Below are positions 5,937 through 36,225 of a stretch of DNA of 37,809 bases, piece after piece. Numbering within the stretch: the stretch's first letter is position 1; each line of letters opens with the position of its first letter. Location of the stretch: positions 1 to 37,809 of the IMG/VR virus record IMGVR_UViG_2602041644_000008; one strand, 5' to 3'. The stretch comes from a virus (Duplodnaviria > Heunggongvirae > Uroviricota > Caudoviricetes). The position numbers and the translations under genes were made by a program. The notes beneath the pieces were generated by a model that was given only the letters and a program-made list of their open reading frames with translations, searched no databases and was not told the origin of the DNA.

Positions 5937-6040
5937 GTTAAATCTCCAGATAGTCGCAGCACCCGTTGCGCCGCATATCTGGTTATTCTATTACCCAAAA
6001 AACCATATATGGATAGAAAGACTGTGAATATGAATAGATA

Positions 6041-6396: not shown

Positions 6397-6412
6397 GGCC
6401 GCTAGAGCGGCC
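6397..6412. terminator. Bidirectional terminator between convergent genes
   Basis: GGCCGCT-AGA-GCGGCC hairpin flanked by an A-run (left) and a T-rich tract (right). Lies between the stop of 6133-6390 (+) and the stop of 6412-7140 (-). Confidence 0.7.
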
Positions 6413-7140
6413 TATCGTTTCGCTTTGTGCTCGTCCCAGCACGTTTTGCACCATGCCATTAAGCCATCCGCATTTTGATTATTAGGGTAAAAGCTGGTTC
6501 GTTTTCTGCGGACATTACAAATTGGGCACCACTTCATATGGCGTGTATTCTTTGGACCATCGAGACACCTTGCACACCACTTAGTCAATCCATCTGGATT
6601 TTTTGACGATTTCCTGAATTTTTCATATGGAAGGTTTATTCTGCATCGCAAGCACTGCTTGCTACCACTTGAAACTCTGTTAGCTGATTCTTCTTTTGGC
6701 GGCGATACAGAAGGTATTCTTGCTGGCTCTGATACTGCCTGAGGTGCTTTTTTAGATGACTGAGACGATATGTCATCACCAGGGAATCGTCCATGATATG
6801 CCGGACGCGTTGACACTCCAGGTGGAAGCTCTGCTGTAAATGGCTTTGGCTGAATCAGTTGCCTCTCTTTTGCTAACTCCTGCTGTTTATAATATGTCTG
6901 GATTACCGCACTATCATAAGCAGGAGGTGCGGAAATATTAGGCGCATTACCTCCAGTTTTTTGAAACTGAGTAGAGGTGTGTTCTATCACCTGTGTACGA
7001 TTAATCGTTATCTCCCCATCTTCGGTCTTTATCGTTTTGTTATGATTAACGACCGTACGATCAGAGATCTTAGTCTTGTTCTGGTTGATAACATAAATAA
7101 TCACCGCAACCACACCAACAACTATCCAGAAAACTTCCAT
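6412..7140 (-). CDS. Membrane-anchored protein with two C-terminal CxxC...WCxxC zinc-ribbon repeats
   Basis: 242 aa. N-terminal TM helix (FWIVVGVVAVIIYVI) followed by Lys/Arg (N-out/C-in predicted). About 130 aa of low-complexity Pro/Ser/Gln linker. Two repeats: CLRCRINLPYEKFRKSSKNPDGLTKWCARC and CPICNVRRKRTSFYPNNQNADGLMAWCKTC. SD GAGGAAAAG. Confidence 0.8.
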   Translation of the reverse strand: MEVFWIVVGVVAVIIYVINQNKTKISDRTVVNHNKTIKTEDGEITINRTQVIEHTSTQFQKTGGNAPNISAPPAYDSAVIQTYYKQQELAKERQLIQPKPFTAELPPGVSTRPAYHGRFPGDDISSQSSKKAPQAVSEPARIPSVSPPKEESANRVSSGSKQCLRCRINLPYEKFRKSSKNPDGLTKWCARCLDGPKNTRHMKWCPICNVRRKRTSFYPNNQNADGLMAWCKTCWDEHKAKR

Positions 7141-7160
7141 TGCTTTTCCTCACAATAACA

Positions 7161-7175
7161 TTACCTTAAAGGTAA
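7161..7175. promoter_or_regulatory. Operator copy (exact)
   Basis: TTACCTTAAAGGTAA, 20 nt upstream of the start of the minus-strand Zn-ribbon gene. On the minus strand it is preceded by AGATAT (-10-like). Confidence 0.75.
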
Positions 7176-7224
7176 TATCTTGCTTTCAGGTGATCAAGCG
7201 TTAAACGCAATCAACCAAATAAGG

Positions 7225-7254
7225 TTGATTTTAATATTTCTTCGCGTTTATCAT
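7225..7254 (+). promoter_or_regulatory. Sigma70-like promoter for the antirepressor leader
   Basis: TTGATT-N18-TATCAT. The -35 hexamer is the right arm of an 8-bp inverted repeat AATCAACC-N6-GGTTGATT (7209-7230). The last T of the -10 is the first T of the operator at 7254. Confidence 0.5.
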
Positions 7255-7268
7255 TACCTTTTAGGTAA
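7254..7268. promoter_or_regulatory. Operator copy (exact)
   Basis: TTACCTTTTAGGTAA, abutting the -10-like hexamer TATCAT. Confidence 0.75.
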
Positions 7269-7381
7269 ATTTACATCGCACTCCTCTTGTGCCATAGTAA
7301 TTGGGCACTGGCAAAATCCAGTGCCGGGATTGGTCTCCCGGATTACTACAGAGGCACATATGCCGCATAAGCGGTTTTTTT
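7262..7381 (+). ncRNA. Candidate small RNA / terminated leader upstream of the Bro-N antirepressor gene
   Basis: No credible ORF. Hairpins GGCACTGG-CAAAAT-CCAGTGCC (7304-7325) and CCGGGA-TTGGTC-TCCCGG (7325-7342), then CCGC-ATAA-GCGG + T7 (7363-7381). The start is inferred from the promoter above. Confidence 0.35.
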
Positions 7382-7535
7382 ATGTGTAAAGCGCACCTAT
7401 TCTATGGTGAGCTGTGTGGGGGCACCGAAAGGTGCGCCGGGTTCCTTTGTAGCCGGTAAGACCAACTCTGCACAGTTCACCACCATCTGATTGGTCTCAG
7501 CGGTGGTGATTAACCTAACTACAAAGGTGATCGCC

Positions 7536-8228
7536 ATGAATACCAAACCTTCCATCTTTTCCTTTGAGTCATCCTGCCAGATCCGTATGTTCATGATTGA
7601 CGGAGAACCTTGGTTTGTCACCAAAGATGTGTGCAATGCTTTGAATATTGATGTTACACAAGCGAGAAAACTTGATAAAAAAGGCTGGAACAAAAAGGGG
7701 CTGTATTCAATACAGACCCCTGGTGGAATACAAGAACTATCCATCGTTTCAGAATCAGGTCTCTACATCCTTATTCTGCGTTGCAAAGAGGCAATGACAG
7801 AGGGAACGAGAGCGTTCAGATTTCTTGAATGGGTTACAGGTGAGGTTCTTCCTCAGATCCGCCGCACCGGAAGTTACATTAAAAACTCGCTCCCGCAGGA
7901 AGAACGCATAAAGATGGTTGCCGACCAGGTAGCCAACGCCACAGCATCAGCAATGATGCAGGCAATGAAGATAGAGAACAAAACCTACAGTGCCCCACTG
8001 AAGCCCGGCTACCGTAGCCTGATTCATTCTCCGTCTGGTGTTCTCGGCCTGACGGAGAACTCACTGCTGATGAATCTGCTGAACCAGTTACAGGAAGACG
8101 GGCACGATGTATCGGGCGCGGCGGCGGAGCTGACCACCATGTTCTGCTACATCGTCGGTGTGAGCAAATGCCTGCGTGATATCCAGACCCACGCGGAGTA
8201 CATCAACGACAAAGCAGGATTCTTCTGA
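7536..8228 (+). CDS. Bro-N domain antirepressor-like protein
   Basis: The track ORF starts at 7491; ATG 7536 (MNTKPSIF...) has SD AAAGGTGA, giving 230 aa. Bro-N motif FSFESSCQIRMFMIDGEPWFVTKDVCNALNI. The C-terminal 65 aa are paralogous to the small protein at 6133-6390. Confidence 0.8.
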   Translation: MNTKPSIFSFESSCQIRMFMIDGEPWFVTKDVCNALNIDVTQARKLDKKGWNKKGLYSIQTPGGIQELSIVSESGLYILILRCKEAMTEGTRAFRFLEWVTGEVLPQIRRTGSYIKNSLPQEERIKMVADQVANATASAMMQAMKIENKTYSAPLKPGYRSLIHSPSGVLGLTENSLLMNLLNQLQEDGHDVSGAAAELTTMFCYIVGVSKCLRDIQTHAEYINDKAGFF

Positions 8229-8272: not shown

Positions 8273-8301
8273 TTGCAGACCGGGGGTGAATAGCGTACTA
8301 T
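8273..8301 (+). promoter_or_regulatory. Sigma70-like promoter of the YafO-like cassette
   Basis: TTGCAG-N17-TACTAT. The last T of the -10 is the first T of the operator at 8301. Confidence 0.55.
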
Positions 8302-8315
8302 TACCTTAAAGGTAA
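8301..8315. promoter_or_regulatory. Operator copy (exact)
   Basis: TTACCTTAAAGGTAA, identical to the copy at 7161. Confidence 0.75.
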
Positions 8316-8357
8316 ACCTGTTTTTATTTTATACCTGTAACTTACCGGAGATTAAAG

Positions 8358-8684
8358 ATGACAAAACTTGGATTCGTGATGAGAGGTCCGGTAAGAAGCG
8401 GAACTCATGCAAAGCGTAGCAAGAGTCGTATTTTTACTGGTAAGGTTGTAGCACGTAAATCAGCTATTGGCTCGTTCAATAGTGAAAATGCGGCATTGCG
8501 CCATATTTTTATCAGCACAAAGCCAAGAGCATCCGCTGATGTGCATACAATGTCTATTCCTATCACAAAGAATATCAAGCGGATAAAAAAGCTCTCATCT
8601 GCAGAATCAAAAGAGATATCTTTCCGCCAGCTTAACTCATTAGAAACGCATATGAAGGAAGAGGAATTCGATGTTTTTGAGTGA
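8358..8684 (+). CDS. Basic 108-aa protein of unknown function; candidate partner/antitoxin of the downstream YafO-like protein
   Basis: SD GGAG 7 nt upstream. Lys/Arg-rich N-terminal two thirds and an acidic tail (EEEFDVFE). Its 3' end overlaps the next gene by 14 nt. I recognise no family. Confidence 0.6.
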   Translation: MTKLGFVMRGPVRSGTHAKRSKSRIFTGKVVARKSAIGSFNSENAALRHIFISTKPRASADVHTMSIPITKNIKRIKKLSSAESKEISFRQLNSLETHMKEEEFDVFE

Positions 8685-9183
8685 GTATAGCGGGAAGGTT
8701 ATACCTACTGGTGAGTTTAAAACTGATGACTTTCTGATTTCGCTAAAAGATGCTTTTAAACAACACTGGCGTCATGGTCATCATCCTGATCTGGGAAAAG
8801 ATACTCTTTTTGAAAGACCAGACGAAGTATTAGGCTTCCATCTCAGAAAGGTTCATGTCAATATTGGTGAATATGCATCATATTCATACTCATGTACTGA
8901 ACAGTGTTGGGATGAGTGGTCATATGGATTGATTGATGAACAAGGAAATTACAGGCCAAAACCAACCAGTAACGCATATCTCATATATGCAGTCAATGAA
9001 ATAAGAGATGCAGCCTTACTAGCTTATTGGGACCCGCCCGCACACACCAAAGCTAACGCAAAAGTTTGGATGGATTCCGTATTGAATTTCACAAAATTAT
9101 TTCATGAACGAACTAATACAGCTCCACTTAGTAGAAATGTTTATCCGTGGGATTATTCGTACAAATCCAAAAAGCCTGCATAG
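8671..9183 (+). CDS. YafO-family toxin-like protein (putative ribosome-dependent mRNA interferase) with an insertion
   Basis: 170 aa. GKDTLFERP...LRKVHVNIG and TSNAYLIYAVNEIRDAALLAYWDPPAHTKA parallel the YafO blocks FGRDALY...VAHIHL and SHLVYC...YLLIAVISPDAH, as I remember them. An extra Cys/Trp-rich segment (YSYSCTEQCWDEWSYGLIDEQGNY) lies between the blocks. Confidence 0.55.
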   Translation: MFLSEYSGKVIPTGEFKTDDFLISLKDAFKQHWRHGHHPDLGKDTLFERPDEVLGFHLRKVHVNIGEYASYSYSCTEQCWDEWSYGLIDEQGNYRPKPTSNAYLIYAVNEIRDAALLAYWDPPAHTKANAKVWMDSVLNFTKLFHERTNTAPLSRNVYPWDYSYKSKKPA

Positions 9184-25344: not shown

Positions 25345-25434
25345 ATCAATGACTCCGTACGCAATTAAATTATTACCAATTTAACCACATATGATTTATT
25401 TATCGTAGATAATTGACATTTAACGCACGAGTTA

Positions 25435-25771: not shown

Positions 25772-25848
25772 GTGGCATTAGCTCAGTTGGACAGAGCAAC
25801 CGCCTTCTAAGCGGTTGGTTGCAGGTTCGAATCCTGCATGCCACGCCA
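25772..25848 (+). tRNA. tRNA-Arg (anticodon UCU, reads AGA)
   Basis: Hand-folded 77-nt cloverleaf: acceptor GTGGCAT/ATGCCAC, D arm GCTC-AGTTGGACA-GAGC, anticodon arm ACCGC-CTTCTAA-GCGGT, variable loop TGGTT, T arm GCAGG-TTCGAAT-CCTGC, discriminator G, encoded CCA. Confidence 0.9.
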
Positions 25849-34092: not shown

Positions 34093-34889
34093 GCTTCAGG
34101 GCTGTTCCAGTGCGGAACGTTGTTATCAGGTAATGTTGATTGCTTCTGTCTGCTAATCTGCAGCCGCCTTGCCAGCTTCTGCTCCCACTGTGCCTGATGG
34201 TATGCCCTACCCTCAGCCATCCAGTAAATTCTGAACTCTGCAAGTTCCTGTGCCGTTGGCAGACTGTCCAGGTAGATCCCCTGCAATGAGCTTTTCCGAA
34301 GAAAGTCATCTGATGGCTGCCATTGTTCATGCATGACAAATTTGCCTAATTGCCCTGGCCCACCAGGAGGAACAAAGTTATTCATCACGGCGTTGTTTGC
34401 GCCGGGGTCATGATGCACAGAATCCCCGTTTTTTGTCCTGCTCTCCCTCTCTTGGTTAAATGACTGGTTATATGACTGGTTCTGGATCCCGTTTTTGGGA
34501 TCATTCAACATCCCGTTTTTGGGATCATTCAACATCCCGTTTTTGGGTATATTCCCGTTTTCGGGAACATTACCGTTTTCGGGTTCATTACCCCCTTCCC
34601 GGTTGCCTTTAATGTTCCCGTTTTTGGTTATATTAAGAGAGAAAACCCGCACTCTTTTCGTCGCTCCCTTTCTCTCTCCGGTATCTGAAATAAGCCCCAT
34701 TTTCATGAGCGATATAAGCCCGGCCTGCACGGTTTTTTTATTCAGGCAAGTGTCTTTAACGAGGCGTTCTATGCTGGGGTAGCAGAGGTTATATTCATCG
34801 GCTCTGTCAGCCATCGAGAGCAGTATGAGCTTTAATGACGAGCTACCTGGATCTGTCTCCCAGGCCCAATCTGTTGCATGTCTGCTCAT
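34074..34889 (-). CDS. Replication initiator (O-like functional analogue; N-terminal winged HTH)
   Basis: 271 aa, SD GGAG. N-terminal wHTH (LKLILLSMADRADEYNLCYPSIERLVKDTCLNKKTVQAGLISL). The central repeat-encoded NGN/PKNG segment coincides with DNA iterons. Lies directly upstream of the P-like gene. Confidence 0.75.
   Translation of the reverse strand: MSRHATDWAWETDPGSSSLKLILLSMADRADEYNLCYPSIERLVKDTCLNKKTVQAGLISLMKMGLISDTGERKGATKRVRVFSLNITKNGNIKGNREGGNEPENGNVPENGNIPKNGMLNDPKNGMLNDPKNGIQNQSYNQSFNQERESRTKNGDSVHHDPGANNAVMNNFVPPGGPGQLGKFVMHEQWQPSDDFLRKSSLQGIYLDSLPTAQELAEFRIYWMAEGRAYHQAQWEQKLARRLQISRQKQSTLPDNNVPHWNSPEAWEDFL
34460..34629. repeat. Origin-like iteron array inside the initiator gene
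   Basis: TCCCGTTTTTGGGA-type units start at 34487, 34511, 34535, 34553, 34571, (34589 degenerate) and 34616, with spacings of 24, 24, 18, 18, 18 and 27 bp. A tandem ATGACTGGTT x2 lies at 34460-34482. Confidence 0.8.
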
Positions 34890-35640: not shown

Positions 35641-36225
35641 ATGAAAAGTATCCAGGACGTCCGCAGGCAAAATCTCAACGACTTGATCGACCGTGAATTC
35701 AATGGTGTTCAGACGCGGATGGCTGAAAAACTTGGAACTCAGGCAAATCTGGTAAACCGCTGGGCTCTTGGCAAGAAGGTTATCGGCGACCAGGTTGCGC
35801 GAAAAATTGAAGCTGCCGCCAATAAACCCCGTAACTGGCTTGATATCGATCGCTCGCTTTCTCAGGAAGGTTTTCAGCCTGTCGGACCAAGCGACATTGG
35901 TCAACTGGCGGCTCACAACCTGGAACGCTGGATGAGCGAAAGCCGCGACCTTTCAACGCAGGGAAAACTTCACCGCGCATCCGGCGTCGCCCAGGTAACA
36001 ATCAGCCGCCTGTTAAACAATGAGGTCAGCGTTTCCATTTCCACCCTGGAGAATGTTGCATCCGCATTTGGGCGTCACGGATATGAATTACTGATTCACC
36101 CGCACGACCCCGCGACTATCAACTATGACCGCTCGCGCTACGCATTGTTACCTGAAACAGAGAAGGCAAAGATCGAAAGTTACATTGAATTTGTCATCAA
36201 CCAGAACGAAAAAAACAAACAATAA
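35641..36225 (+). CDS. Prophage repressor candidate with two HTH domains and no S24 peptidase domain
   Basis: 194 aa. The N-terminal HTH ends in ARKIEAAANKPRNWLD (CI/C2-like). The second is XRE-type (LHRASGVAQVTISRLLNNEVSVSISTLENVASAFG). No Ser/Lys autocleavage module is recognisable. Divergent from cro; a strong terminator follows. Confidence 0.7.
   Translation: MKSIQDVRRQNLNDLIDREFNGVQTRMAEKLGTQANLVNRWALGKKVIGDQVARKIEAAANKPRNWLDIDRSLSQEGFQPVGPSDIGQLAAHNLERWMSESRDLSTQGKLHRASGVAQVTISRLLNNEVSVSISTLENVASAFGRHGYELLIHPHDPATINYDRSRYALLPETEKAKIESYIEFVINQNEKNKQ

Follow-up and report, generated by a model that had tools for sequence, protein, structure and literature searches.

The 37,809-nt stretch of DNA analyzed here (positions 1 to 37,809 of IMG/VR record IMGVR_UViG_2602041644_000008; hereafter the window) is a prophage of the epsilon15/phiV10/TL-2011b type, genus Uetakevirus. 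It encodes a Bro-N antirepressor of 230 amino acids (ant; 7536–8228, plus strand; Pfam Bro-N E-value 2e-13), and the question raised by this locus is what the leader in front of the gene, at 7176–7535, contributes to its control. An initial annotation had described this leader as structured and terminated, without a credible open reading frame (ORF) before ATG 7536, and had likened it to the RNA control exerted by c4 in phages P1 and P7. We find that the leader is an unannotated member of known RNA families and of a known phage immunity system. It very probably represents a P1-type immI module, in which the antirepressor of this epsilon15/phiV10-like prophage is under antisense-RNA control.

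Two small RNA families in the antirepressor leader

An Rfam scan of the whole window at curated thresholds returned three matches, two of which were located inside the leader. The first, isrK (RF01394), scored 74.7 bits (threshold 50) over the full length of the model (positions 1–77) and delimits an IsrK-type a1b1 small RNA of ~77 nt at 7305–7381. The second, C4 (RF01695), scored 78.2 bits (threshold 45, E-value 7.5e-14) at 7400–7487, likewise over the full model (positions 1–87). Taken together with the same order of families in the P1 immI region and the Gifsy-1 isrK locus, and with the identity of the leader to related sequences, these matches show homology to c4 of P1 and P7, which the initial annotation had not been able to show. 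Further matches in the region to lysM-TM7, FtrA, CRISPR-DR57 and L20 leader scored far under their thresholds and were dismissed.

The upstream element has the two 5' hairpins, the Rho-independent terminator and the predicted promoter of its own (start near 7305) by which an isrK RNA is recognized. Hairpin 1 (7305–7311/7318–7324) and hairpin 2 (7325–7329/7336–7340) changed on both sides in six of seven and four of five pairs, respectively, in the family alignment described below. Both had been listed initially: GGCACTGG/CCAGTGCC, which is hairpin 1, lies exactly where it had been placed (7304–7311/7318–7325), while CCGGGA/TCCCGG, which is hairpin 2, is present but occupies 7324–7329/7336–7341 instead of 7325–7342. 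The previously noted CCGC-ATAA-GCGG stem with its run of seven T residues was recovered by a terminator scan as GCCGC-ATAA-GCGG(T) plus T7 (7362–7375, T run to 7381) and is the IsrK terminator. The segment 7305–7381 folded more stably than dinucleotide shuffles (z-score −2.8). It presents the a1 site UUGGUCU (7330–7336) in the loop of hairpin 2, followed by the b1 site CUACAGAGG (7346–7354).

A permissive scan also placed the family c4-a1b1 (RF03163) at 7292–7344 with 38.3 bits, under its threshold of 46.7. As this model covers the same two hairpins as isrK, the two matches denote the same element, and the copy in the window is nearer to the isrK seed. The models coincide in all three sequences compared (7305–7344 in the window, 918–1012 in the examined P1 sequence and 34240–34329 in that of Gifsy-1), and isrK, which belongs to no clan, and c4-a1b1, which belongs to clan CL00128, appear to be one element that is listed twice in Rfam.

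The downstream element has the architecture of C4, with a long closing helix P1 (7405–7421/7466–7482; compensatory changes on both sides in 12 of 16 pairs) around two hairpins, P2 (7422–7426/7431–7435; five of five pairs) and P3 (7436–7440/7453–7457; invariant by the search pattern). Its minimum-energy fold equals the Rfam structure, with a z-score of −5.6 against dinucleotide shuffles of 7400–7487. The P3 loop carries the element b', CCUUUGUAG (7444–7452), and the single-stranded joint following P3 carries a', AGACCAA (7459–7465). All seven bases of a' are complementary to a1, and b' pairs with b1 over nine of nine positions including one G-U pair. Alignment to the annotated ends of P1 c4 predicts a mature C4 of ~79 nt at 7406–7484. 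Two RNAs, of ~77 and ~79 nt, are predicted in place of the single species of about 120 nt that had been envisaged. AGACCAA had been recorded correctly at 7459–7465. The 7-mer was found five other times in the window, so that by itself it is not rare.

The whole leader (7305–7545) reached a z-score of −5.1. All elements listed in the initial annotation occur in the sequence, and the structured, terminated leader is real: it folds beyond shuffles and its helices covary, with a single exception. The arms GCGCACCT and AGGTGCGC are located at 7391–7398 and 7430–7437 as reported, but the hairpin they could form was rejected as a conserved structure, with 50.9% of cells paired compared to 47.9% in shuffles, and it competes with helix P2 of C4.

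The leader (7141–7560) is 98% identical to that of phage EC.W1-9 and 86% identical to that of TL-2011b; the phiV10 leader is 81% identical to it, and identities of 69–72% were obtained to P1-sized plasmids and one P1-sized phage record. It is present in 482 of 5,426 complete Escherichia coli genomes (~9%), where the annotation under it consists of the Bro-N gene only. No RNA gene is annotated under the leader in phiV10 (DQ126339; 3054–3133 of the examined piece), EC.W1-9, TL-2011b or the E. coli RefSeq genomes. The sole element annotated at the leader in the phiV10 record is the terminator, and some public records place a "hypothetical protein" or a similarity note across the IsrK/C4 region.

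Covariation of C4 with two pairs of target sites

A search of viral contigs with a C4-core pattern retrieved 120 loci representing 91 distinct sequences and 37 specificity combinations (34 loop or b' types and 11 joint or a' types), which were aligned with MAFFT. In this alignment the intramolecular helices were 89% paired, 30 of 44 pairs had changed on both sides, and none of 500 shuffles matched these values; pairing fell to 36–42% in slid controls. The helices covary across the 37 types.

The intermolecular pairings were assessed with anchors that are independent of complementarity, namely CCAA on the C4 side and UUGG on the target side. The three variable bases of a' were fully complementary to a2, the target site downstream of C4, in 33 of 34 loci (0.8% between different specificities), and to a1 in 33 of 36 loci (2.3% between different specificities). 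Duplexes computed with RNAduplex between C4 and the downstream targets had a mean energy of −22.7 kcal/mol for own and −13.4 kcal/mol for foreign combinations, and the corresponding means for the upstream targets were −21.5 and −15.2 kcal/mol. A column-based covariation score reached 0.37 compared to 0.12 in shuffles, with some register slips in the alignment. A permutation test with trimmed a' queries of 5–6 nt did not separate own from foreign targets, and the anchor test and duplex energies were used instead.

The phiV10 leader illustrates the three-way changes. Its a1, a' and a2 read UUGGCGU, ACGCCAA and UUGGCGU and its b1, b' and b2 read CUAAAAGG, CCUUUUAG and CUAAAAGG, i.e., all three a sites and all three b sites have changed in step. 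The a and b alleles of the sample, at least 34 and 11 for b and a, respectively, reassort independently: the b' loop of the window occurs elsewhere with the a' sequence ACGCCAA, and the a' of the window occurs elsewhere with another b' loop. The initial annotation had seen that a repeated loop motif could pair with its complement. UUGGUCU is indeed complementary to AGACCAA, but the roles are the reverse of those assigned, UUGGUCU being the target in a1 and a2 and AGACCAA the a' element of the C4 antisense RNA.

The b2 site and the ribosome-binding site of ant

Downstream of C4, a hairpin at 7477–7509 (outer stem 7477–7484/7502–7509, inner stem 7487–7490/7497–7500) displays a2, UUGGUCU (7491–7497), in a 6-nt loop, with seven of seven bases complementary to a'. 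All 12 pairs of this hairpin had changed on both sides, 86% of cells were paired, and 0 of 500 shuffles matched the observed value. The CACCACC/GGTGGTG hairpin noted initially is therefore a conserved structure that presents the second copy of the loop motif, although it lies at 7478–7484/7502–7508 and not at 7479–7509. The repeated 10-mer GATTGGTCTC was likewise confirmed at 7328–7337 and, shifted by one base from the recorded 7490–7499, at 7489–7498; it occurs nowhere else in the window. Since the 5' arm of the a2 hairpin doubles as the 3' strand of helix P1 in C4, the two structures are mutually exclusive.

A second pairing, which had been overlooked, is the functionally decisive one. The b2 site CUACAAAGG (7519–7527, element to 7529) is the exact reverse complement of b' and pairs with it over nine of nine positions, and it overlaps the Shine-Dalgarno sequence AAGGUG (7524–7529), which lies 6 nt before ATG 7536. 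The b' element, which also pairs with b1, covaries with both b1 and b2. In the family, b2 runs into GGAG(G), and an ATG follows 5–9 nt after the matched stretch in most types; the same overlap with a ribosome site was found for icd in P1 and for anrP in Gifsy-1, where b2 (AUCACCGGAGG) contains the anrP Shine-Dalgarno sequence. No other C4 targets were found in the window, UUGGUCU and CUACAAAGG occurring only at the sites described. Family membership, the structures and complementarities, the three-way covariation and the ribosome-site overlap are established by these data: a' and b' of C4 are complementary to a2 and b2 downstream, where b2 extends across the ribosome site, a1 and b1 lie upstream, and an antirepressor follows.

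Comparison with the P1 immunity region and the Gifsy-1 isrK locus

The annotated order of the P1 immI region, Oc4, P2c4, P1c4, a1, b1, c4, a2, b2, icd and ant, is also the order found here. In the P1 sequence, as in the window, the second hairpin has a1 as its loop and is followed by b1; within C4, b' forms the loop of helix P3 and a' the joint after P3; a2 follows C4, b2 extends into the ribosome site (that of icd), and a terminator-like hairpin precedes C4. Rfam recognized C4 in P1 with 68.8 bits, less than in the window, c4-a1b1 with 51.0 bits and, more weakly, isrK with 35.1 bits including the terminator-like hairpin. The systems differ in the ribosome site concerned. In P1, b2 covers the icd ribosome site and ant expression follows icd translation, whereas here no icd-like ORF lies between C4 and ant and b2 covers the antirepressor site directly. 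The Bro-N antirepressor bears no relation to P1 Ant, the a and b sequences are not those of P1, and the host phage is a podovirus-type prophage of ~39 kb as opposed to a 94-kb plasmid prophage. The C4 RNA of P1 is a stable RNA of about 77 nt that is cut from its precursor by RNase P and represses ant in trans.

The same two-RNA layout was found in Salmonella prophage Gifsy-1 (isrK 79.3, c4-a1b1 48.1 and C4 69.0 bits), immediately upstream of anrP. Gifsy-1 also has isrJ after anrP, which had no match in the scan of the whole window. Counted from the IsrK start, G28 and G31 of Gifsy-1 lie in a1 (UUGGCGU) and their partners C162 and C159 in a' (ACGCCAA). Compensatory mutations G28A/C162U and G31A/C159U were reported for Gifsy-1 by Hershko-Shalev et al. 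(PMC4825925), and, since they fall in a1 and a', they provide direct evidence that a1 and a' pair in a homologue. Other elements of the Gifsy-1 model can be translated in the same way: C4 carries a conserved AUGG at its 5' end, to which the first AUG of "orf45" (nt 107) corresponds, "helix d-II" corresponds to helix P1 of C4, and the stable processed RNA STnc1160 described downstream of IsrK (PMC4825925) coincides in position with the C4 match. The Gifsy-1 "orf45"/STnc1160 is C4. The Gifsy-1 paper does not cite P1 c4 (PMC4825925), and its model was accordingly built around orf45 rather than C4. High transcription of IsrK and STnc1160 was reported for the Gifsy-1 prophage of Salmonella strain D23580 in each of 17 conditions. 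Gifsy-1 is the sole case in which Hfq binding of IsrK and its activation of the antirepressor in trans are known (PMC4825925). In APSE phages, C4 and isrK have already been noted to occur together beside Bro-N genes.

The orf45 proposal raises the possibility that a small protein, and not RNA pairing, governs the gene, i.e., that translation of the 28-codon ORF at 7404–7490, the orf45 counterpart, controls ant by coupling. In favor of this, the AUG at 7404 is a conserved feature of the family, and for Gifsy-1 it was reported that orf45 is translated and that full activation requires it (PMC4825925). The Gifsy-1 ORF, however, has 45 codons and ends in an ATGA at the anrP start, while the stop codon here (7488–7490) lies 45 nt ahead of the ant ATG without such an overlap, so that start/stop coupling of the Gifsy-1 type cannot apply in that form. 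Both layouts occur within the family, where the length of the ORF varies from 5 to more than 190 codons, and the AUGG belongs to helix P1 of C4, a helix that evolves through compensatory changes. We give this explanation very little credence. A coding leader (ORFs 7180–7389, 7301–7459 and 7404–7490) was rejected on the same ground that the length of the C4-overlapping ORF is not conserved, and no conserved ORF was found between the promoters and the ant ATG, in agreement with the initial annotation.

A purely cis-acting leader would offer another solution, in which alternative folds, a1b1 with a'b' or separate hairpins, decide on ant translation without a diffusible RNA. The whole leader does have a minimum-energy fold with cis pairing of a1 to a' and of b1 to b'. 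This fold corresponds to "structure A" of Gifsy-1, which was described as translationally silent (PMC4825925), and the a2 hairpin and C4 helix P1 exclude each other because they share a strand. Yet the terminator between a1b1 and C4 implies that most a1b1 RNA is a separate molecule, and the covariation of a2/b2 with C4 requires an interaction which the cis model leaves unused. IsrK acts in trans in Gifsy-1, and c4 reportedly does so in P1, according to work of Citron and Schuster from 1990. Exclusive control in cis is thus highly unlikely, and we retain a diffusible C4 RNA as the preferred explanation.

Among the further systems named in the initial annotation, P22 also controls, in its immI region, an antirepressor gene by means of an RNA, and this gene lies among late genes close to that of the tailspike. 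The sar RNA of P22 is an opposite-strand transcript across the arc-ant junction, whereas both Rfam matches here are on the plus strand, the same as ant, and no promoter-like or terminator-like site was found on the minus strand in 7100–7600; the suggested resemblance to sar does not hold. The small RNA that controls the N15 antirepressor is CA, and the name CB used initially was mistaken. In N15 CA and the P4 CI RNA (seqA/seqC), a small RNA processed from the leader pairs up- and downstream of itself and keeps lytic or anti-immunity genes off (PMC4825925).

Both of these RNAs act by premature termination, while the conserved overlap with the ribosome site in the present family points to a translational block. 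Applied to this leader, termination control would mean that C4 pairs with a1/b1 on the nascent transcript and shifts stopping at 7362–7381 rather than blocking the ribosome site. Several observations are in line with it: only 7 nt separate the end of b1 from the terminator stem, a terminator follows b1 in 31 of the 37 family types, a1/b1 covary with C4 as tightly as a2/b2 do, and the Gifsy-1 authors themselves raised the idea by analogy with P4 CI RNA and its seqA/seqC (PMC4825925). It leaves the constant b2/Shine-Dalgarno overlap unexplained, though; constitutive STnc1160 with IsrK made growth arrest stronger, not weaker, in Gifsy-1, and the P1 annotation assigns translational repression to a2 and b2. 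As a replacement for translational repression, termination control is therefore improbable, but it could be an additional control layer.

Promoters, operator-like palindromes and neighboring genes

Two promoters are predicted ahead of the leader RNAs on the plus strand. The upstream one (7225–7254; TTGATT, 18-nt spacer, TATCAT) is a sigma-70-like consensus match whose −10 hexamer overlaps an operator-like palindrome, ATTACCTTTTAGGTAAA (7253–7269), and it is the positional counterpart of the C1-controlled promoter P2c4 of P1. The same palindrome abuts the −35 hexamer of the downstream promoter (7270–7298; TTTACA, 17-nt spacer, TG-n-CATAGT), whose predicted start, near 7305, is where the IsrK model has its first base. 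The −35 and −10 hexamers of the downstream promoter keep a conserved distance in the 37-type alignment, and the annotated −10 of P1c4 is at the same distance from hairpin 1 as the −10 here. phiV10 has an equivalent site, TTTACC-N5-GGTAAA, at the position of the 7253–7269 palindrome. A further operator-like site, the perfect palindrome ATTACCTTAAAGGTAAT (7160–7176), is located between the leader promoters and the divergent gene (ATG 7140, minus strand).

Palindromes of the form ATTACC-N5-GGTAAT are strongly overrepresented, with about 12 sites in the window compared to 0.21 expected by chance. These sites of 17 bp each, starting at 6040, 7160, 7253, 8300, 25434, 33177, 33239, 35185, 35522, 35570, 36282 and 36344, are dispersed ahead of several genes, and several of them cluster around a repressor-like HTH_3 ORF (35641–36225, 194 amino acids). 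The prophage repressor may be presumed to bind them. The set looks like the operators of this repressor, spread over the genome in the manner of the C1 operators in P1, and by analogy with the P1 operator Oc4 the leader unit is probably transcribed under repressor control.

Some neighboring features are recorded here as observations in their own right. A hairpin AATCAACC/GGTTGATT with a T-rich run has a terminator-like score at 7209–7230 (plus strand) and overlaps the −35 hexamer of the upstream promoter. The palindrome at 7160 is immediately upstream of the start codon of the divergent gene (6412–7140, minus strand), which encodes 242 amino acids, hydrophobic at the N-terminus and rich in Cys in the C-terminal half, and has a weak match to the Stc1 zinc domain below the cut-off. 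The palindrome at 8300 precedes two overlapping ORFs, 8358–8684 (108 amino acids) and 8671–9183 (170 amino acids), the second with a weak YafO-toxin match under the Pfam cut-off (E-value about 1e-3), and 8300–9183 could be a repressor-controlled accessory or toxin-like cassette. The site at 25434 lies ~340 bp upstream of a tRNA-Arg gene (anticodon TCT, 25772–25848) carried by the prophage; Gifsy-1 likewise has a tRNA-Arg near its isrK locus.

Proposed mode of control

In the model that we favor, transcription would start from the tandem promoters beside the operator-like palindrome, mainly near 7305, and most transcripts would stop at the terminator (7362–7381), yielding the ~77-nt IsrK-type RNA that displays a1 and b1. 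Read-through transcripts would carry C4, which, by homology, would be cut from the leader (mature RNA ~7406–7484). Pairing of a' and b' with a2 (7491–7497) and b2 (7519–7527) on the ant mRNA would then hide the Shine-Dalgarno sequence in the b'/b2 duplex, leaving the antirepressor untranslated and lysogeny stable. The IsrK-type RNA, which offers the same two sites, could pair with C4 instead, whether in cis, within the read-through transcript, or in trans, and a rise in its level would make the ant ribosome site accessible, an effect that IsrK overexpression has on anrP in Gifsy-1. There, IsrK supplied in trans raised anrP translation about 140-fold (PMC4825925). We infer C4 processing, translational repression, any Rho-dependent polarity and the competitor role of a1b1 from P1 and Gifsy-1. 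Competition of the IsrK-type RNA with the mRNA for C4 is the simplest reading of a1b1 by this analogy, and we would put its chances at about even.

Several points weigh against this model or limit its reach. In this phage, C4 and the IsrK-type RNA are known from sequence alone, and the promoters and operator are consensus matches only. The family sample represents one sub-family, as the search pattern fixes GCCGG, CCGGT and CCAAC, and for this reason helix P3 and four of the a' bases could not vary. The shuffle controls ignore phylogeny, for which the slid and cross-specificity controls compensate only partly. A good terminator precedes C4, the supply of which therefore depends on read-through. 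The Gifsy-1 authors attributed activation to translational coupling of orf45 to anrP and not to C4 (PMC4825925), and a1 mutations in cis raised basal expression in their system (PMC4825925). A pure decoy does not predict such an increase, which makes the decoy role of a1b1 a tentative one.

With these points in mind, a broader proposal can be put forward tentatively, as its chances fall just short of even. IsrK and the a1b1 element of c4 systems would be one thing, a terminated decoy RNA that titrates C4, and the widespread pair of IsrK and C4 would form a self-contained toggle of antisense and anti-antisense RNAs that acts on antirepressors and other early genes. The two-site address would serve as an RNA-level heteroimmunity code, and the orf45 mechanism of Gifsy-1 would mostly be C4 under another name.

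Genes downstream of C4 modules and implications for Uetakevirus prophages

In the family, b2 is followed by a gene for an antirepressor of the Bro-N, Rha or P22 type, by one for a small Tad2-like protein, or by a short ORF of unassigned type. The records of phiV10 and TL-2011b label their Bro-N homologues as anti-immunity or antirepressor proteins. Overexpression of a Bro-N antirepressor drove the related phage ZX5 towards lysis, and the corresponding paper does not mention antisense RNA or small RNA (PMC9782041).

In two viral contigs of 93 and 90 kb, close in size to P1 (94.8 kb), a protein of 85 amino acids is encoded directly after b2 of a C4 module. The copy from the 93-kb contig, the only one scanned, matched the Tad2-like (Thoeris anti-defence 2) Pfam model with 27.7 bits (cut-off 25), and C4-type control may therefore reach anti-defence genes. 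No Pfam matches were obtained for P1 Icd or for two of the small ORFs that lie downstream at other loci.

The known working of such systems is unchanged by these results, and what they add is modestly new: isrK and c4-a1b1 appear to be one element, the Gifsy-1 "orf45"/STnc1160 is C4, and the two-site specificities are very diverse and reassort. Two literatures that do not cite each other, on P1 c4 and on Gifsy-1 IsrK, are thereby joined. A leader that carries no annotation gains a function, and it occurs in E. coli genomes as well as in phiV10, TL-2011b and related phages. Our findings identify how Uetakevirus prophages probably silence their Bro-N antirepressor, and the linked a and b alleles could predict cross-regulation between prophages that reside in the same host.

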